Shown here: in pieces, positions 32,169-43,397 of the stretch
Layout: every line of letters begins with the position of its first letter
How positions within the stretch are numbered: position 1 is the first letter of the stretch
Assembly: GCA_964585385.1 (NCBI GenBank)
Contig: CAZPDP010000002.1
Location: forward strand, 26,143 to 90,142
Direction: 5' to 3'
DNA from: an uncultured Bacteroidales bacterium
GTDB lineage: Bacteria; Bacteroidota; Bacteroidia; Bacteroidales; UBA12077
Length of the DNA: 64,000 nucleotides
The notes under the pieces: model-generated
Databases searched by the model: none
Told to the model about the DNA's origin: nothing
The model's input: the letters and a program-made list of their open reading frames with translations, nothing else
Position numbers and translations under genes: made by a program

Positions 32169-33293
32169 TTATAATCTTAACAATTTCATTAATTTAATGG
32201 CAAGATCCAGAAGGACTGTTTTTCCGTGTGCATTCATCTGAATATCGCGATAGGCTTTGTTAAATTCGGTATAAATTCGATTTGCGTTCCTTTCATTAAT
32301 AAACTGGGAGAATTTGCCGGAAAATTTTTTTTCTTCATCGGTGAGGTATACAATTTTTTCCATTTGCAAATGCATCATAAAATTTTCCCGTACCATTCGT
32401 GCGGCATACTGGAGGAACATTTTCTGCCTTTCTCTTCCGATACTCCCGGTTTCATCTACCCATGAAAGGATTTCGGGAACCTTCTTAGAGTAGCACAAAC
32501 GCATCAAATCTATAAAGCGGCTGAAATTGATTTGTTCATCCTCGCTTGTCTTTAAATAATTCAATGCGTTCAGGTAACTCCCATTAGCCAGGTGAACAAT
32601 TTCCTGGGCCTTTTTGGTTTCAAGTCCGAAATGATCGCTAAGCGAATTAAACATGCTCTGGTCATCAATTTTAGGTACTTTTATATTTTGGGTTCTGGAG
32701 AGAATGGTAGGTAAAATCAGATCTGAATTTTCCGATACCAAAAGGAATATAGTAAACGGAGGAGGTTCTTCAATCATCTTTAGAAGTTTATTGGCCGCGC
32801 TTTGATGCATTCTTTCAGGAAGCCAGATAATCATCACCTTGTAATCTGCTTCAAATGTTTTGTAATTCAGTTTGCGGATGATATTATTGCTTTCACTGGT
32901 GGGAATAATACCTTGTTTATTTTCCAGTTCAAGCATTTCATACCACTGATTCGGACTGATATAGGGGTTCTCAGTTATACGGGATCTCCATTTTTCCAGG
33001 TAGGTATCGCTTGTTTCAGGCTTGGCTTCTGATGCTTTTTTTACAGGGAATACAAAATGCAAATCGGGATGGATGAGTTTGTTGTATTTTTTACAACTGT
33101 TACATACCCCGCATGAGTCATCTTCCTTCTTGTCCTGGCAATTGATATACTGTGCATAAGCAATGGCCAGCGAAAGTTTTCCTACCCCCTGCGGGCCAAT
33201 AAACAATTGTGCATGACTTATTCGATTGTCTTCAACAGTTTTTATCAGTTGTTTTTTAATGGTTTCCTGACCTATGATTTCTTTGAATTGCAT
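32169..33293 (-). CDS. holB: DNA polymerase III subunit delta'
   Basis: AAA+ clamp-loader motifs (HAQLFIGPQGVGKLSLA), Zn module (CGVCNSCKK), SRTQ sensor region. Confidence 0.85.
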   Translation of the reverse strand: MQFKEIIGQETIKKQLIKTVEDNRISHAQLFIGPQGVGKLSLAIAYAQYINCQDKKEDDSCGVCNSCKKYNKLIHPDLHFVFPVKKASEAKPETSDTYLEKWRSRITENPYISPNQWYEMLELENKQGIIPTSESNNIIRKLNYKTFEADYKVMIIWLPERMHQSAANKLLKMIEEPPPFTIFLLVSENSDLILPTILSRTQNIKVPKIDDQSMFNSLSDHFGLETKKAQEIVHLANGSYLNALNYLKTSEDEQINFSRFIDLMRLCYSKKVPEILSWVDETGSIGRERQKMFLQYAARMVRENFMMHLQMEKIVYLTDEEKKFSGKFSQFINERNANRIYTEFNKAYRDIQMNAHGKTVLLDLAIKLMKLLRL

Positions 33294-33411: not shown

Positions 33412-35796
33412 ATGTATTCAATTGACAATTATAATTTCAACGGAAAGAAAGTATTGATGCGCGTTGATTTTAATGTTCCTTTAAATGACAAACAGGAAAT
33501 TACCGATGACACAAGAATTGTAACAGCTTTGCCATCTATTCAGAAGATATTGAGCGAAAACGGAGCCTTAATTTTATTAACCCATCTTGGGAGGCCTAAA
33601 GGCAAATACGATGAGAAATTCTCTGTTAAACATATTGTTCCTCATTTGTCAAAACTACTTGAGAGAGAGGTAAAATTTGCAGAAGACTGTGTAGGGGAAA
33701 TAGCCAAAAAAGCTGCTTCTGAATTAAAGCCCGGAGAAGTTTTAATTCTTGAGAACCTCAGGTTTCATCCTGAAGAAAAATCAGCCGATACAGAATTTGC
33801 AGCGCAACTGGCTTCGCTGGGGGATGTATACATTAACAATGCTTTCGGTACAGCACACAGGGCACACGCTTCAACATATACAATTGCTAAGTTTTTTCCA
33901 AAAGATAAGATGCTGGGTTACCTTGTTGAAAGCGAGATTAAACATATAGACAGGGTTTTGAATGAACCTGAACATCCTTTTACAGCTATTATTGGGGGTT
34001 CAAAAATTTCTACGAAAATTCATATTATCAAAGCCCTAATCGAGAAAGTGGATAACCTGATTATTGCAGGTGGTATTGCCTACACTTTCAGCAAAGCTAC
34101 CGGAGGAAAAATCGGAAAATCCATTGTTGAAGATGACTATTTGGATGTAGCCCTTGAGATTATAGAAAAGGCCAAAGAGTACAAAGTAAACCTTTATCTT
34201 CCCATCGATTGTATTATTGCAGATGAATTCAGTAATGACGCTAACATTAAGCATACCGAAACAGATAAAATTCCCGATGGATGGATGGGGTTGGATATTG
34301 GCTACAAATCTGCTAACCAGTTTACCAATGTGATTGAAAATTCTACGAAGATTCTGTGGAACGGGCCCATTGGTGTTTTTGAAATGTCTAATTTCTCGAT
34401 GGGTACCCTGCGGGTCGCTATGGCGGTAGCTTCAGCAAGCGACAAGGGGGCCTTTTCTTTACTCGGCGGCGGAGATAGTATCTCAGCAGTAAATAAGTAT
34501 GGCCTGGCAAACCGAATCAGCTTTGTTTCTACTGCTGGAGGCGCTCTGCTTGAATATCTGGAAGGGAAAGAGTTACCCAGTTTGAAAGCAATAAGAGAAG
34601 AACTTACCATTGACAACTATGATTTTAATGGTAAAAAGGTCCTGATGCGTGTTGATTTTAATGTACCCTTTGATGAAGATTTCAACATTCTGGACAATAC
34701 CCGTATCATTACTGCTTTGCCAACAGTCAGAAAAATTCTGACCGATGGGGGTTCTATCGTCTTTCTCACTCATTTGGGACGTCCCGGGGGAAAGTATGAT
34801 GACAAACTTTCACTCAAGCACCTTGTTCCTTATCTTTCGAAGTTGATTGACAAGGAGATAAAATTTGTAGATGATTGTCTGGGCAGAAGGGCCAAATTGG
34901 CTGCGCAGAATTTGCAGGCCGGGGAAATTTTACTTCTCGAAAACTTGCGCTTCTACAAAGAGGAACTCGAAGGAGATGAGGAATTTGCCAGGCATCTGGC
35001 TGAACTGGGTGATGTTTACGTAAATAATTCATTTGGAACGGCCCACAGAGCGCATGCCTCAACTTATACGATAGCAAAATTCTTTCCGAACAACAAGATG
35101 CTGGGTTACCTGGTGGAAAATGAAATTAACAACATAAACAGGGTGTTAAAGCAGCCCAAGCGGCCCTTCACCGCTATTCTGGGAGGTTCACAGGTTAGTA
35201 CGAAAATAGATATAATCCGGGCATTGCTTGCAAAGGTGGATAATCTTATTATTGCAGGAGGAATTGCTTATACTTTTGTTAAGTCTCTTGGCGGGGATGT
35301 TGGTGATTCCCTTGTTGAGGATGAATCTCTGGATGTAGCCAGAGAAATTTTGGATAGAGCAGAAAAACTGGGAGTGAATTTACTACTGCCTACGGATTGT
35401 GTAATAGCTGATGAATTTAAAAATACGGCTAACATAAAACACAACGATATTAAATCTATAAAGAAAGGATGGCGGGGAATGGATATTGGAATCAAAACCG
35501 CTACAAAATTTGCTGATGTTATTGAAAGTTCTGCTACTATTCTATGGAATGGGCCGATTGGAGTTTTTGAAATGTCCAATTTCTCCGGTGGAACTTTGCG
35601 AATAGCAATGGCAGTCTCAAGAGCAACAGATAAAGGATCATTCTCACTAATCAGTGGAGGCGATTCTATTGCAGCCGTTAATAAATATAACCTGGCACAC
35701 AAGATAAGTTATATTTCCACTGCAGGAGGTGCTTTGCTTGAATTTATCGAAGACAAGCAGCTTCCTTCTCTTAAGGCAATCCGGGAGGAGTTTTAA
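33412..35796 (+). CDS. pgk: Tandem phosphoglycerate kinase fusion: two complete PGK modules in one 794-aa polypeptide
   Basis: Both halves carry the full PGK motif set ([31 protein letters not shown](K/Q)x[22 protein letters not shown]). Module A is codons 1-396, module B codons 397-794. Confidence 0.9.
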
Positions 35797-37357: not shown

Positions 37358-37389
37358 AAGGCTGATGATGATTATTGTCAGCCTTTTTT
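37358..37389 (+). terminator. Rho-independent terminator after the PGK-like gene
   Basis: AAGGCTGA / TCAGCCTT stem followed by a T-run, 24 nt after the stop codon. Confidence 0.7.
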
Positions 37390-37474: not shown

Positions 37475-37482
37475 TACCTTTG
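37475..37482 (+). promoter_or_regulatory. -7 promoter box TACCTTTG
   Basis: Exact TAnnTTTG match 17 nt upstream of the ATG at 37500. Confidence 0.5.
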
Positions 37483-37499
37483 AAAAAAAAATAGTGGTT

Positions 37500-38840
37500 A
37501 TGAAAGGATTTAAAGCCTATGACATCCGGGGAATTTATAATAAAGACTTTAACAAAGAGGATGTTTATAAACTGGGCTATTTTTTACCAGAACTGGTAGG
37601 AGTTGATAAGATACTGGTGGGTAGAGATATTAGACTTAGTTCCGAAGAGATTTTCAATAGCCTGGTAAATGGAATAACTGATCGTGGTGTCGATGTTTAT
37701 GATGCCGGACTGACAACCACCCCCATGATATATTTTGCTACAGGGAAGCATGAATTTAAAACATCCGTCCAGATTACAGCTTCGCATAATGCTAAAGAAT
37801 ACAATGGGTTTAAAATATCCGGGGAAAATGTTGTGCCCATTGGATTTGAAAATGGATTGAAAAAACTTCATGAGCTCGTACTAAATGGTGAGATAAAACC
37901 TTCTCTAAATAAAGGCAGGCTCATTTCTTTCAATGTTAAAGAGGAGTATCTGGTATTTTTACGGAAGTATTATAACAAGAATATTCGGAATTTAAAAATT
38001 GGGGTTGATTGCTCCAATGGAATGGCAGGAATGGTTATAAAAGAGATTTTAAAGGATCACCCCATCTATATTCACTGCGAACCCAATGGCGAGTTTCCCA
38101 ATCATAACCCTAATCCATTGGAACCCGAGAATCAAAGGGATATTAAAAAACTGGTTTTACAGGAAGAATGTGATTTAGGACTAATTTTTGACGGGGATGG
38201 CGACAGGGTGATGTTCATTGATGAAAAAGGAGACTTTATTTCTCCCGATATGGTCATTGCACTCATGGGGCATTATTTTCTTAAAAATCCAGATGAAACG
38301 GTATTGCAGGATATTCGTACTTCTAAATCTGTTAAGGAATATTTAAAACAGTACAATGCCCATATTCATACCTGGAGAGTGGGTCGGGCTTTTGCATCAC
38401 CCAGGCTTAAAGAGATAGGCGGCCTTTATGGAGGCGAACTGGCCGGCCATTACTATTTCCGTGATTTTTATTATTCTGATTCGGGAATTTTAGCAGCTCT
38501 TATTGTTCTGGATATTGTCTCAGACTTTAAAAGCAAAGGAGTTAGGTTGTCTGAAGTCATAGACCAGATTTCTAATTACGAAAGCAGCGGAGAGTTGAAT
38601 TTTAAAATTGAGGACAAATCAGAAGCAATGGAAGCCCTGAAGGAATATTTTACCAAACAGGAAAAACCTCTCGAATTGCTTGATTTTGATGGTTACAGAA
38701 TAGAATTTGAAGAATGGTGGTTTAACGTCAGGCCCTCTAATACAGAGCCTTATTTGCGGTTAATTGTAGAAGCCAGGGATAACGATACACTAAGGGAAAA
38801 AGTAGATAAAATGAAAAGCATTCTCAAACAATTCAAATAG
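37500..38840 (+). CDS. Phosphomannomutase / phosphoglucomutase
   Basis: Alpha-D-phosphohexomutase motifs: active-site TASHNAKEYNGFK, metal loop FDGDGDR, GGELAGH sugar loop; GTG at 37494, ATG at 37500. Confidence 0.85.
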   Translation: MKGFKAYDIRGIYNKDFNKEDVYKLGYFLPELVGVDKILVGRDIRLSSEEIFNSLVNGITDRGVDVYDAGLTTTPMIYFATGKHEFKTSVQITASHNAKEYNGFKISGENVVPIGFENGLKKLHELVLNGEIKPSLNKGRLISFNVKEEYLVFLRKYYNKNIRNLKIGVDCSNGMAGMVIKEILKDHPIYIHCEPNGEFPNHNPNPLEPENQRDIKKLVLQEECDLGLIFDGDGDRVMFIDEKGDFISPDMVIALMGHYFLKNPDETVLQDIRTSKSVKEYLKQYNAHIHTWRVGRAFASPRLKEIGGLYGGELAGHYYFRDFYYSDSGILAALIVLDIVSDFKSKGVRLSEVIDQISNYESSGELNFKIEDKSEAMEALKEYFTKQEKPLELLDFDGYRIEFEEWWFNVRPSNTEPYLRLIVEARDNDTLREKVDKMKSILKQFK

Positions 38841-39621: not shown

Positions 39622-40779
39622 TTAATACATATGATCGCCTTCAGCTTCTACTTCACTGGAGTCGATTTTCTTTTTATTCATTGATGTCCATGCATACCAG
39701 ATATAAGCTATCACAAAAGGAACCATCAGGGAAACATAGCTCATTGCCGTCAAAGTGTAATGGCTTGAAGAACTGTTTTCAATAGTCAATGAACTCTGCA
39801 AATCAAATGTAGAGGGATAGTAGGCGGTATTATTGAAACCGGCCACCATGAACAGAGAGAAAACTGTCAAGGCCGCACCAAAGCCAGTAAACCACAAGCC
39901 GTTTTTACTGTTTTTAAAGATTGTTAATGCAATTCCGGTCAGCACCCCAGCAACACCTGCCAGAAGGAAGGCTGCCACCAGAGGCATTTGCAGATAATTG
40001 TTCAGATACTTGTTAGGTTCCATGAAAACATTTTTTGTTTCAGGATTTACTGCAAAACCGTCTTTTGTGAGGAGCAAAATCATGAAAGAAAGAAATACAG
40101 CCAGGAAGGGAATCGTGTTGTACCGGATTTGTTTTTTAGATCCTTCAAAGATCTCCGTATCTTCAATGGTTTTGATAAAGTATAGGGAGCCAAGGATTCT
40201 TGCCAGGAAAAAAACGGATAATCCGAGCAGAATATTTTGAATATTAGCTGCTGCCTCCAGTCCATTCAGTGGTGTTTCCCACCGGGTAATTGCACTGTTT
40301 GTTATATCAGTCAGACGAATTTTGTCTACAGAAAACTCTGAACCTGTGAAAAAAGTACTAACAGCCGCCCCAAATAATATGGTACCAATCAGGCCATTGA
40401 TGAAAAGGAAGGTGTTATAAGTTTTTTCACCCAGAAAGTTAGATGGTTTTTTTCTGTATTCATAGGACACAGCCTGGATAATAAAAGAGAAAAGAATAAT
40501 CATCCAAACCCAGTAAGCTCCCCCGAAACTGGTAGCATAAAAAAGAGGAAAGGAAGCAAAGAAAGCTCCTCCGAAAGTGACCAGGGTAGTAAAACCCAGG
40601 TCCCATTTTCGTCCTATTGAATTGACAAGCATGGTCTTTTGAACATCATTTTTTGCAATCTGGCCCACCAGGGTCTGCCCGCCCTGAACAAACATCAGAA
40701 AAACCAGGATGGATCCCAGAAGGGAAATGATGACCCACCAGTATTGTTGTAATGCAAGATGTGATAATGTTTCAAACAT
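39622..40779 (-). CDS. cydB: Cytochrome bd ubiquinol oxidase subunit II
   Basis: 385-aa polytopic membrane protein directly downstream of cydA with CydB-type N-terminus (LQQYWWVIISLL). Confidence 0.9.
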   Translation of the reverse strand: MFETLSHLALQQYWWVIISLLGSILVFLMFVQGGQTLVGQIAKNDVQKTMLVNSIGRKWDLGFTTLVTFGGAFFASFPLFYATSFGGAYWVWMIILFSFIIQAVSYEYRKKPSNFLGEKTYNTFLFINGLIGTILFGAAVSTFFTGSEFSVDKIRLTDITNSAITRWETPLNGLEAAANIQNILLGLSVFFLARILGSLYFIKTIEDTEIFEGSKKQIRYNTIPFLAVFLSFMILLLTKDGFAVNPETKNVFMEPNKYLNNYLQMPLVAAFLLAGVAGVLTGIALTIFKNSKNGLWFTGFGAALTVFSLFMVAGFNNTAYYPSTFDLQSSLTIENSSSSHYTLTAMSYVSLMVPFVIAYIWYAWTSMNKKKIDSSEVEAEGDHMY

Positions 40780-40791
40780 GATATAGTCGTT

Positions 40792-42309
40792 TTATTTTGG
40801 TCCGATTTTAATTTGTCTTACCAGAATGGATATTTCAGCAATCAACAGGATTGTGAACAAGGCTGCGAACAGCCAGAATGTTAACTGAACATTTGCTACG
40901 CTGATGTGTGAAGTAGAGATTTTAGTGGGCAACACATCCTGTATAGTCCAGGGTTGCCGGCCCACTTCAGAAACCACCCAGCCCAGCTGAGAAGCAAGGT
41001 AACCCAAAGGTATAGACCATAATGCAGCTTTCAGTAGTGTTCTGTTATTCTCAATTTTATCATTCATGTTGGCCCAAAGAAGCACGACAAAAAAAAGAAT
41101 GAAATAGAAGCCCAGAATAACCATTAGATGGAAACTGTAAAATGTCAACGGGACAGGGGGGACTACTTCTTCTTCCCTCTCAAAATATCCATATCCCATA
41201 TATTCATAATTCTTCTCAAAATCTTTTATGTGTTCTTCAGCCAGTTCTTCGTTATTTGCCTTTTTTGCTTGTTTGTACTTTCTCAGAGAGGCAATAGCAT
41301 CTTTGCCCTTTTTCATTTTATTTGTGGTGGGTTCTATCCCGTACTTTTCGTTACCATAAACCAGATCGTTCACACCCGGCACAAAAGCATCGACATCTCT
41401 TTCAGCCAGAAGAGACAATAATTTTGGCATAGCAATTTTAAAATGGAATGATTTTTCCTGGTCACCCACTTTTTTGCTGTGATTTAATAATCCAATAGCC
41501 ACGAGATCCGCTCCTTCCTGTCCGTCATATAATCCTTCCATCGCTGCCAGTTTCATGGGTTGGGTTTTGGCAACATCGTTACCGGAACTGTCACCGGTAA
41601 CAACTATAAAGAGGGATGCCAGAACTCCAAATACAGCACCAATGAGCATACTCCTGCGGGCAAATAAAATTTCTCTTTTTTTCAGTAAAAACCAGGCGCT
41701 AATTCCAACCACAAACAAGGAGGAAATTACATATCCACTTGACAGGGTATGGAGAAATTTATCAACCGCTGTAGGGGAAAGCAGGACTTCCCAGAAATTT
41801 TCCATTTCATTTCTGGCGGTGTCCGGGTTAAAGTTCATGCCCACCGGATTCTGCATCCACCCGTTGGCCACAAGAATCCACAAAGCGGATAAGTTTGAAC
41901 CCAGGGCTACCAGCCAACTGGATAAGAGATGGAATTTTTTACTGACCTTTTCCCAGCCGAAAAACATTACGGCAATAAATGTTGATTCAAGGAAAAAAGC
42001 CATGATTCCCTCTACAGCCAGGGGAGCGCCAAATATATCACCAACGAACCAGGAATAGTTTGACCAGTTGGTGCCAAACTCAAATTCAAGAATTATTCCA
42101 GTGGCTACTCCGATGGCGAAATTGATTCCAAAGAGGGTCATCCAGAATTTTGTTGTTTTCTTCCACTGTTCATTGCCCGTCTTGTAATATACAGTTTCCA
42201 TTATGGCAATGATAAAGGAAAGACCTAAGGTCAGAGGGACAAAAAGCCAGTGATAAATAGCAGTTAGTGCAAATTGAGCTCTTGACCAGTCAACTAATAA
42301 TTCATCCAT
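40792..42309 (-). CDS. cydA: Cytochrome bd ubiquinol oxidase subunit I
   Basis: CydA N-terminus (LSRAQFALTAIYHWLFVPLTLGL), Q-loop, GWVVSEVGRQPW motif. Confidence 0.95.
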   Translation of the reverse strand: MDELLVDWSRAQFALTAIYHWLFVPLTLGLSFIIAIMETVYYKTGNEQWKKTTKFWMTLFGINFAIGVATGIILEFEFGTNWSNYSWFVGDIFGAPLAVEGIMAFFLESTFIAVMFFGWEKVSKKFHLLSSWLVALGSNLSALWILVANGWMQNPVGMNFNPDTARNEMENFWEVLLSPTAVDKFLHTLSSGYVISSLFVVGISAWFLLKKREILFARRSMLIGAVFGVLASLFIVVTGDSSGNDVAKTQPMKLAAMEGLYDGQEGADLVAIGLLNHSKKVGDQEKSFHFKIAMPKLLSLLAERDVDAFVPGVNDLVYGNEKYGIEPTTNKMKKGKDAIASLRKYKQAKKANNEELAEEHIKDFEKNYEYMGYGYFEREEEVVPPVPLTFYSFHLMVILGFYFILFFVVLLWANMNDKIENNRTLLKAALWSIPLGYLASQLGWVVSEVGRQPWTIQDVLPTKISTSHISVANVQLTFWLFAALFTILLIAEISILVRQIKIGPK

Positions 42310-42321
42310 TAGATTGCGTTT

Positions 42322-42534
42322 TTAATGATTTGTGAGTTCTTTAATTATATGTTCGCTTCGCTCTTCATCAGAATTAAACTTTTCCTGCATAACATCCGGA
42401 AAGAAGAAAAGCCTTAAAATTGCAAACATGATGAAAAGTTTAATCAGAATAATTATCCAAAGCTTTTTTCCGGTTTGGCTAATGTTTCTGAAACCTTCAT
42501 AATAAAAGAGCCAGATCTTTTTGAAAACATTCAT
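42322..42534 (-). CDS. DUF4492-like small membrane protein preceding cydAB
   Basis: 70 aa (FYYEGFRNISQTGKKLWIIILIKLFIMFAILRLFFF), matching the small ORF recalled upstream of cydA in Bacteroidota. Confidence 0.7.
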   Translation of the reverse strand: MNVFKKIWLFYYEGFRNISQTGKKLWIIILIKLFIMFAILRLFFFPDVMQEKFNSDEERSEHIIKELTNH

Positions 42535-42560
42535 TTTTTACGCTCAGTTTGAACCTGTAA

Positions 42561-42568
42561 CAAAAATA
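42561..42568 (-). promoter_or_regulatory. -7 promoter box (TATTTTTG on the minus strand) for the cyd operon
   Basis: CAAAAATA on the plus strand, 26 nt upstream of the DUF4492 start. Confidence 0.5.
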
Positions 42569-42611
42569 CTAATGTATGTGAGAAATGGTCGTTTGTTTGT
42601 GTAATTTAAAA

Positions 42612-42767
42612 TTAGTAAAAACAAATACAGCTGCTAAAATAACTTAATTTTCGCTTTTTCATTTTATCTCCACAACAACTAAGCTCTTGACGACCTGCGT
42701 GGTAAATTTCTACCATGTTTCCACAATGATTGCAGTGGTAGAATTCAAGTCTGATTGTTTCTGCCAT
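42612..42767 (-). CDS. Desulforedoxin-like Fe(Cys)4 mini-protein (Dfx N-terminal-domain type)
   Basis: From the internal ATG at 42767: [38 protein letters not shown]..., i.e. the CxxC...CC pattern of desulforedoxin; own -7 box upstream; no SOR domain follows. Confidence 0.5.
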
Positions 42768-42793
42768 TTTGAAGAGAATAAAGTTTATCTTAC

Positions 42794-42801
42794 CAAAGAT
42801 A
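42794..42801 (-). promoter_or_regulatory. -7 promoter box (TATCTTTG on the minus strand)
   Basis: CAAAGATA on the plus strand, 26 nt upstream of the ATG at 42767. Confidence 0.45.
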
Positions 42802-42828
42802 TAAAAATTGAAATAAGTACCCCTGAAC

Positions 42829-42859
42829 AAAAAAAACCCCGATATATCACTTATCGGGG
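42829..42859 (-). terminator. Rho-independent terminator downstream of ferritin
   Basis: CCCCGATA / TATCGGGG stem with 7-nt loop; the A8 run on the plus strand gives a U-tract on the minus strand. Confidence 0.75.
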
Positions 42860-42884
42860 CTCTTTATTCAACAAGACAGTTAAA

Positions 42885-43397
42885 TTATTCTTCTTTAGTT
42901 TCGTCAACAAATTGTCTTCCACTTAATTCCTTGTCTATCATCAACAGGCCATGACCTTTACCACCAATCAATTTGAGTTTTTGAAGAAGTTCATCAGCGT
43001 TGGCTTCTTCTTCAACTTGTTCTGCAACAAACCATTGAAGCATATTGTCTGTACCATGATCGTTTTCAGATCTTGCAAGATCTACCAGGTCATGAATCAT
43101 TTTTGTCACCTTCTGCTCATGCCCATATACTTCCTCAACAACTTTGACAGGATCATCCCACTCTGACGGTGGTGTGTCAATTGCTTTAAGTTTTATCCTG
43201 CCACCTCTGTCAAACACATAGTTGTATATCTTCATAGCATGCGTCATTTCTTCCTGTGCCTGAACATACATCCAGTTGGCAAAACCAGAAAGATTTTGGT
43301 CTTCAAAATAAGCTGACATAGCAAGGTAAAGATATGCAGAATACATTTCAGCATTGACTTGATCATTAAGGGCTTGTTCCATTTTTTCTGATAACAT
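42885..43397 (-). CDS. ftnA: Non-haem ferritin
   Basis: 170 aa; ferroxidase di-iron ligand pattern (EMYSAYLYL...QEEMTHA...E); ferritin-like four-helix layout. Confidence 0.9.

Follow-up and report, generated by a model that had tools for sequence, protein, structure and literature searches.

The window analysed here is a stretch of 64,000 nucleotides from an uncultured Bacteroidales bacterium (contig CAZPDP010000002.1, assembly GCA_964585385.1), and the gene of interest in it encodes two complete phosphoglycerate kinase (PGK, EC 2.7.2.3) modules fused in frame in a single chain. PGK interconverts 1,3-bisphosphoglycerate plus ADP and 3-phosphoglycerate plus ATP. The open reading frame (ORF) is uninterrupted, its sole stop codon being the terminal one, and the Pfam profile for PGK (PF00162) matched the product twice, each time over about positions 1-379 of the 379-position profile and with 988.9 bits in total against a cutoff of 27. 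This agrees with an earlier reading made from the letters alone (the sequence-only reading), which had described one uninterrupted ORF with two full PGK modules. The predicted product has a size of about 87 kDa. Directly upstream lies the divergent block TrmB-GldH-RicT(PSP1)-holB, and the order downstream is a PGK-like gene that we call C, a hairpin, a mutase gene and the gene for RNase HII. The features are collected in Table 1, with catalytic sites numbered after human PGK1.

Table 1. Positions of the tandem PGK gene, its parts and its neighbours in the window.
Feature	Position	Strand	Remarks
holB (DNA polymerase III delta')	32169..33293	-	TIGR00678; divergent upstream neighbour, synteny anchor
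Tandem-fused PGK-PGK gene	33412..35796	+	single ORF, 794 codons plus stop; two full PF00162 matches
Module A, complete PGK	codons 1-397, 33412..34602	+	full catalytic residue set
Lys215 equivalent of module A (K198)	34003-34005	+	
Fusion junction GAA GAA / CTT ACC (REE/LT)	34597..34608	+	without linker, stop or start codon
Module B, complete PGK fold except for the initiator Met	codons 398-794, 34603..35793	+	remodelled phosphoryl-transfer site
Module B Ala164 position, Ser (NNSFGTAHR)	codon 540, 35029..35031	+	fixed in the window's sublineage (8/8 clusters)
Module B Lys215 position, CAG = Gln	codon 594, 35191..35193	+	Gln in 8/120 clusters, all of the window's sublineage
Module B Gly371 position, Ser (SGGD for GGGD)	codon 748, 35653..35655	+	6 clusters
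PGK-like gene C, 428 amino acids	36048..37334	+	PF00162 273 bits; 30% identity to module B
Terminator-like hairpin, 12-bp stem then TTTTATT	37358-37385	+	directly after C
Bacteroidetes-type -7 motif TACCTTTG	37475-37482	+	12 nucleotides upstream of the PGM/PMM start
PGM/PMM-family mutase (phosphomannomutase/phosphoglucomutase)	37494..38840	+	PGM_PMM domains I-IV
Cytochrome bd oxidase subunits I and II, ferritin-like gene	39622-43397	-	downstream of the locus

Module A runs straight into module B without a linker, as had been claimed, and with no stop codon or Met between them. The DNA reads AAA GCA ATA AGA GAA GAA / CTT ACC ATT GAC (KAIREE/LTIDNY), and the protein begins with the PGK start itself (MYSIDNY), with no presequence. 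Single PGKs of related Bacteroidota have an N-terminus of the form M-x-x-ID and a C-terminus of the form AI-x-x-x-stop, and by this comparison the junction is a complete PGK minus its stop codon followed by a complete PGK minus its Met. Module A ends one residue short of the natural C-terminus seen in module B (REE versus REEF), again as previously observed; the boundary that had been given (codons 1-396 and 397-794) was off by one, since positions 34600-34602 are codon 397 (E), although the peptide strings given with it were correct. The register of the junction is the same in every subclade and in all of the 120 protein clusters examined (see below), and while its residues differ between subclades (REE/LT, KQN/LT, KQS/YS and others) its length is constant. 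In the AlphaFold2 model the predicted local distance difference test (pLDDT) score is about 71-80 through the junction, which is therefore not predicted to be disordered. A separate promoter or start for module B was considered and rejected, as there is no Met at the start of the module and neither of two promoter scans points to a site for it: sigma-70-like matches were at chance level (19 found versus 18.5 expected) and the Bacteroidetes -7 motif TAnnTTTG was not enriched (85 versus 78.7 expected).

The fusion is a real and conserved bacterial gene, if a fairly rare one. A search of 5.8 billion proteins for homologues, in line with a check proposed in the sequence-only reading, gave at least 120 clusters of tandem proteins; the best 120 (P0001-P0120), which form our family sample and are a lower bound, all consist of proteins of about 794 amino acids with 59-100% identity, drawn from NCBI, JGI, ENA and Logan. 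With P0001 the window protein shows 100% identity, and with the remaining 119 clusters 59-93%. P0001 was found on three contigs, one of them from an independent Logan assembly of run SRR7048227, in which the assembler rebuilt the identical protein together with identical holB and RicT neighbours. Among GTDB contigs (one genome per species), the fusion was present in 14 Bacteroidales species known from metagenome-assembled genomes (MAGs), in each case (14/14) as an uninterrupted ORF with two PGK modules, and it also occurs on a 4.6-Mb contig. The window protein shares what characterises this Bacteroidales tandem PGK-PGK family, that is, a length of about 794 amino acids, two PF00162 matches, the fixed junction register and a position downstream of a divergent holB.

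The two halves of the window protein are identical at 265 of 394 residues (67%, with 85% positives and no gaps, by BLASTP), in line with the 60-70% estimated by eye. On the DNA level the identity is 65.5%, falling to 40% at third codon positions, and the NG86 estimate of synonymous divergence (dS) is saturated and not computable, with a nonsynonymous divergence (dN) of about 0.22-0.25. The earlier observation that an identical peptide at 33844-33900 and 35032-35088 is written with 15 of 19 codons as synonymous variants is exact, and all differences are synonymous. Between close orthologs (L001 versus L002), omega is about 0.03 for module A and about 0.02 for module B; both halves are therefore under strong purifying selection, as had been proposed.

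Structure prediction, another of the checks suggested earlier, returned a PGK fold for both modules with a mean pLDDT of 89.2 from a 78-sequence alignment (predicted TM score, pTM, 0.58). Foldseek comparison to 1PHP, 3Q3V and 1V6S gave TM scores of 0.95-0.97 relative to the target and a root mean square deviation (rmsd) of 1.3-1.6 A, and together the model and these matches support the two-lobed PGK fold with N-domain, hinge and C-domain. No chain in the PDB spans more than half of the query, and the TM score relative to the query is at most 0.48. Both termini of PGK are located on the N-domain, so the zero-length junction must place the two N-domains close to each other. An engineered circular permutant of yeast PGK (1FW8) likewise has the native C-terminus joined to the native N-terminus (PMC2395249), and it is the sole PDB chain that aligns continuously over the natural junction (query 69-461). 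It differs in being artificial, with a single module and new termini at residue 72, whereas the window protein has two modules, but its existence shows that joining the PGK termini is structurally tolerable.

The genomic position of the fusion points to its origin. The same TrmB-GldH-RicT-holB block flanks a single-domain pgk in many other Bacteroidota (including loci L016-L019, L028, L032, L040, L042, L046-L048, L050 and L054). By its position the fusion is therefore orthologous to the housekeeping pgk and arose by duplication in situ. Modules were obtained by splitting the proteins with a hidden Markov model, supplemented by an alignment of same-length sequences, and in a neighbor-joining tree with 66 single PGKs and human PGK1 as the outgroup, all A and B modules formed one clade in 100/100 bootstraps. 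For 120/120 of them the nearest relative outside the own class belonged to the other class, and no single-module PGK was nested within the A+B clade. The G+C content of both halves, overall and at third codon positions, agrees with the genome (the fusion gene has about 32-40% G+C across the Bacteroidales MAG hosts, and the window about 39% overall). Neither half is thus foreign, and a horizontal origin of one of them is ruled out.

The A and B modules probably did not simply diverge from each other after the fusion. Reciprocal monophyly of A and B was recovered in 0/100 bootstraps, and in several sublineages the A modules group as sisters with the B modules from the same organisms (bootstrap support 78-98%). 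Between sublineages, A-A and B-B identities are only 0.00-0.03 above A-B, while the A-B identity within a protein reaches 0.77 compared to 0.61-0.70 across lineages; over the family the halves are 50-79% identical. Residues diagnostic for A or B across the family were looked for and found at 0 of 395 columns. Four-taxon site patterns gave 13-38 concerted sites per quartet, 4-11 sites with an orthology signal and 3-7 sites of noise. A residual orthology signal above noise was seen only among groups other than that of the window (G71), and it is concentrated in columns 1-40 and 141-200, with a few scattered ones towards the C-terminus (386, 390 and 395), whereas in G71 the orthology signal equals the noise (6.0 versus 5.2 sites, and similar). 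Module B evolves slightly faster, with the A orthologs being closer in 77% of pairs. These patterns and the invariant junction register are most economically explained by one fusion event, after which gene conversion within the gene partly homogenised the halves long ago, and they suggest that such homogenisation occurred. For G71, either complete homogenisation or loss and re-duplication may fit the patterns. Because A and B are not reciprocally monophyletic and the A-B identity is higher within proteins, the 67% identity dates the last homogenisation and not necessarily the original fusion. The old duplication of the sequence-only reading thus holds as far as an old divergence is concerned (dS is saturated), but the identity cannot be taken as the age of the fusion.

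The catalytic residues of the two modules tell a different story for the window than for most of the family. The 3-phosphoglycerate-binding residues D23, N25, R38, H62, R65, R122, H169 and R170 are present in both window modules, as in 120/120 A and 120/120 B modules of the sample. In module A of the window, K215, K219, N336, E343 and GGGD374 are all present, while module B departs from this set for phosphoryl transfer and nucleotide binding by K215 to Q and G371 to S, retaining K219, N336, E343 and D374. Across the family K219, N336, E343 and G372-G373-D374 are found in essentially all 120 A and 120 B modules, and K215 in 120/120 A modules, 112/120 B modules and 66/66 single PGKs. The eight clusters with K215Q form one sublineage (P0001, P0002, P0005, P0008, P0010, P0012, P0013 and P0014, where P0001 is the window protein). 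All eight also carry Ser at the Ala164 site, which is at least 97% invariant elsewhere, and the Ser at Gly371 is found in five of them and in P0011. Module A of these clusters shows no fixed change at any of 96 columns with at least 97% invariance elsewhere. In transition-state-analogue complexes of human PGK, the amino group of K215 touches the transferring phosphoryl group, the charge of which is balanced by K215, K219 and R38 (PMC5594045, PMC6040698). Given this role of K215, module B of the window is predicted to bind ligands but to be a poor catalyst, and in the whole sublineage it is probably catalytically attenuated. Since it is still strongly constrained it is not decaying, and we infer that it has been retained for another role, be it structural, regulatory or in an altered catalysis.

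A review of PGK calls the enzyme generally monomeric and lists as exceptions dimeric or tetrameric archaeal enzymes, the PGK-TIM of Thermotoga and the chloroplast PGK of Euglena gracilis (PMC7729029). The window modules are 44-49% identical to canonical bacterial PGKs (Geobacillus stearothermophilus 1PHP, Thermotoga maritima 1VPE and Campylobacter jejuni 3Q3V), with TM scores of 0.87-0.97 relative to the target and an rmsd of 1.3-3.0 A, and module A shares their catalytic residues; unlike them, the window protein has two covalent modules in one chain and a module B without K215. Thermotoga PGK-TIM (NF010569) is likewise a PGK fused in frame to a second glycolytic module, but that module is triosephosphate isomerase (TIM), whereas in the window protein it is a PGK and Pfam found no PF00121. 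The archaeal oligomers (Pyrococcus woesei, Methanothermus fervidus and Sulfolobus) also have more than one active site per particle, and by analogy a covalent tandem might correspond to a dimer in a single chain (cf. PMC7729029). These oligomers consist of noncovalent, identical subunits and are linked to thermoadaptation, in contrast to the covalent and diverged halves found here. A documented in-frame precedent is the PGK of the Euglena chloroplast, translated as a polyprotein precursor with two units that differ at one residue and are cut apart after import (PMC7729029). It shares with the window protein that PGK units are in frame in one translation product, but it has a plastid presequence and near-identical units where the window protein has no presequence, no linker and halves with 67% identity, and the bacterial gene is conserved as a fusion over a whole clade.

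HMMER was run exhaustively against 1.84 billion cluster representatives, among which the Bacteroidales family reduces to one full-length representative (P0241) and fragments, and this revealed further tandem PGKs. A prokaryotic family with a high G+C content (P0244 and P0395-P0400; 7 clusters of about 798 amino acids) is near-linkerless with the junction ALTV/LPFRT, and its gene at L084 8001-10394 (ENA ERZ21831019 ctg33840l) lies in a genome of about 68-69% G+C with a TIM gene directly after it. Its halves are 72% identical with a dS of about 0.52, all catalytic residues are present in both, and it is 43% identical to the window protein; on these sequence grounds it is an independent, younger fusion. 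A few prokaryotic tandem PGKs with 100% identical halves are suspect. Eukaryotic gene models hold 2-4 PGK modules. In gastropods (Aplysia californica P0247, XP_035826093.1, 1918 amino acids; Bulinus truncatus P0249/P0392, 1031 amino acids) the modules are highly diverged, with 25-41% identity, and a THEG repeat is present in one model. Dinoflagellate multi-PGK models (for example Amphidinium carterae P0471, KAL9138824.1, 2090 amino acids) have modules that are 90-100% identical and a polyprotein-like look. Plant tandem models (P0401-P0405) join paralogs that are 82-87% identical and probably merge adjacent genes for the chloroplast and cytosolic enzymes. With these database tandems and the Euglena two-unit precursor (PMC7729029), in-frame PGK-PGK has precedents beside the PGK-TIM fusions named in the sequence-only reading. 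As to the concern that such fusions are common and already characterised, the architecture is abundant in databases, but a full-text literature search (PGK-PGK, tandem PGK, K215A) found no study of a bacterial tandem PGK. What is new here is a conserved, linker-less double PGK, uncharacterised in bacteria, that takes the place of the housekeeping monomer in one Bacteroidales clade, and not a new kind of system. Eukaryotic polyprotein precedents exist.

We explain the gene as a housekeeping pgk that was duplicated and fused in situ, with most modules of the family being active and module B of the window being attenuated, and we put the probability of this explanation as a whole at about 75%. 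The pgk of an uncultured Bacteroidales lineage would have been duplicated in tandem at its native locus, and with the stop codon of the first copy and the start codon of the second gone, the two would have been joined in frame. This would yield a single chain of about 87 kDa, a covalent pseudo-dimer with two active sites in most members of the family, whose modules we infer from their residues to be both active PGKs. The halves would have stayed functionally interchangeable across the family, because they have been repeatedly homogenised and no family-wide residue distinguishes them. In the sublineage of the window, the PGK activity would be carried by module A, while module B, which has kept the binding residues but lost one of the three charge-stabilising positives (K215Q) in addition to the A164S and G371S changes, is probably a weakly active or inactive ligand-binding partner.

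Several observations weigh against parts of this explanation. Loci and contigs were compared, and a separate single pgk might be present elsewhere in the fusion-bearing genomes. The pTM of the model is only 0.58, and the predicted geometry between the modules is of low confidence. A permutation test at synonymous codons in the window and 14 loci detected no recent conversion tracts, which were rejected (minimum p 0.02 over 15 tests, not significant), and a 50-nucleotide exact run in L009 is at most suggestive (p of about 0.06-0.08). The concerted evolution suggested here is based on site patterns, p-distances and neighbor-joining trees, and part of its signal could come from parallel substitutions specific to single lineages. 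The attenuation of module B is deduced from the role of K215, and a Gln at this position might leave some activity.

Other explanations can be set against the same data. If two adjacent pgk genes had been mis-joined because sequencing or assembly dropped a stop codon or frameshift between them, the MAG-like nature of the window, the proneness of tandem repeats to assembly errors and the suspect database proteins with identical halves (P0402, P0408 and P0446) would all fit. However, repeat collapse or mis-joining is implausible, if not impossible, between halves that share only about 65% of their DNA sequence (65.5%), the register is the same in 120 clusters from four sources (NCBI, JGI, ENA and Logan), in 14 GTDB species and on the 4.6-Mb contig, and another assembler rebuilt the identical protein. 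Conservation and the independent assembly rule out an artefact, the chance of which we consider negligible, and here the sequence-only reading had come to the right conclusion. Cleavage of the 794-amino-acid product at the junction into two PGK monomers is precedented by the in-frame precursor of Euglena gracilis, which is processed to monomers (PMC7729029), and is brought to mind by the dinoflagellate multi-PGK models. Against it, there is no linker, presequence or conserved cleavage motif, the C-terminal helix runs directly into the N-terminus, the junction residues vary between subclades while the length is fixed, and the halves, with 50-79% identity, are far from near-identical. We also know of no bacterial system in which cytosolic enzymes are processed from a polyprotein, and such processing is very unlikely to occur here.

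The history of the halves leaves room for two further alternatives. Module A and module B could have had distinct roles ever since the fusion, in the direction of the reaction (glycolytic or gluconeogenic), in nucleotide preference or as an enzyme and its regulatory pseudoenzyme, and the slightly faster evolution of module B and its altered active site in the window's sublineage would be expected from this. Such a family-wide subfunctionalisation is at odds with the 0/395 columns that separate A from B, with the complete catalytic residues of B in 112/120 clusters, with the repeated homogenisation that has been tolerated and with the restriction of K215Q to one young sublineage, and we find it distinctly unlikely. 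The fusion could also have arisen independently, or been lost and re-made, in several Bacteroidales sublineages including that of the window. The well-supported A+B sister clades of single lineages, the G71 orthology signal at the level of noise and the lack of detectable conversion tracts speak for a recurrent origin, and the unrelated high-G+C family shows that a near-linkerless PGK-PGK fusion can arise independently. On the other hand, the junction register is identical in all subclades, the groups other than G71 have a residual mosaic of orthology as expected of partial conversion, and no single-module PGK falls inside the A+B clade, all of which makes this scenario rather improbable, too.

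One may go further and regard the proteins of the window's sublineage as a covalent enzyme/pseudoenzyme pair in glycolysis with possible coupling between the modules, which we put forward tentatively, the odds being against it. Module A would then catalyse the PGK reaction, and module B, still constrained at an omega of about 0.02, would bind 3-phosphoglycerate or 1,3-bisphosphoglycerate and nucleotide without efficient turnover and act as an allosteric sensor, a substrate buffer or a stabilising partner for module A. By forcing the N-domains together, the zero-length junction could result in a coupling of hinge closure and in cooperativity, for an enzyme known from textbooks as a monomer without cooperativity.

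The neighboring gene C encodes a more divergent PGK-like protein. The best 120 clusters of its family (P0121-P0240) are 75-92% identical and include MAGs of Desulfobacterales/Desulfobulbaceae. Invariant in all of them (120/120) are W169/Q170 (H169/R170 in PGK), P338V and a deletion at E343, as well as G212A and G238V, and R38, K215, K219 and GGGD are retained. C is probably a kinase that is active but binds its substrate or nucleotide differently. It adjoins the fusion in L001, L002, L004, L005, L011 and L082, stands next to a single pgk in 0 cases in the data set and stands alone on a Desulfobacterales chromosome. The mutase gene is syntenic in L001, L002, L004, L005 and L082, and its product scores under the cutoff for every NCBIfam equivalog. 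The hairpin and the -7 motif, both consensus matches, suggest that C and the mutase gene are separate transcription units. Farther downstream, the cytochrome bd and ferritin-like genes are consistent with a micro-aerotolerant anaerobe as the host.

Standard annotation handles these genes poorly. The NCBIfam model for bifunctional PGK/TIM (NF010569) gives the window protein 1013.5 bits (cutoff 883) despite the lack of a TIM domain. This is a false positive, since the score comes from two PGK matches that reach only positions 5-393 of a profile with 645 positions. A 400-amino-acid NCBI protein (P0393) that might have been an unfused version is instead the part of the fusion P0241 from residue 396 to 795, its start having been placed at an internal Met, and it conceals the tandem architecture in three MAG records. 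C is annotated everywhere as a plain phosphoglycerate kinase. A weak PF06962/MnmM match at residues 22-80 of the window protein has no significant stretch and was treated as spurious. As a consequence of the misannotation of fusions, metabolic reconstructions of these Bacteroidales may be wrong in detail.

Textbooks present PGK as a monomer that works by hinge bending, and it serves as a model for domain closure and for the folding of two-domain proteins. A linker-less double PGK that has been conserved for a long time is therefore a natural experiment on the mechanical coupling of two hinge enzymes, and it clearly illustrates, as far as trees and site patterns can indicate, how two parts of one core metabolic gene evolve in concert. 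In the sublineage of the window, where one half has lost its catalytic lysine while remaining under constraint, we may be looking at the birth of a pseudoenzyme partner.

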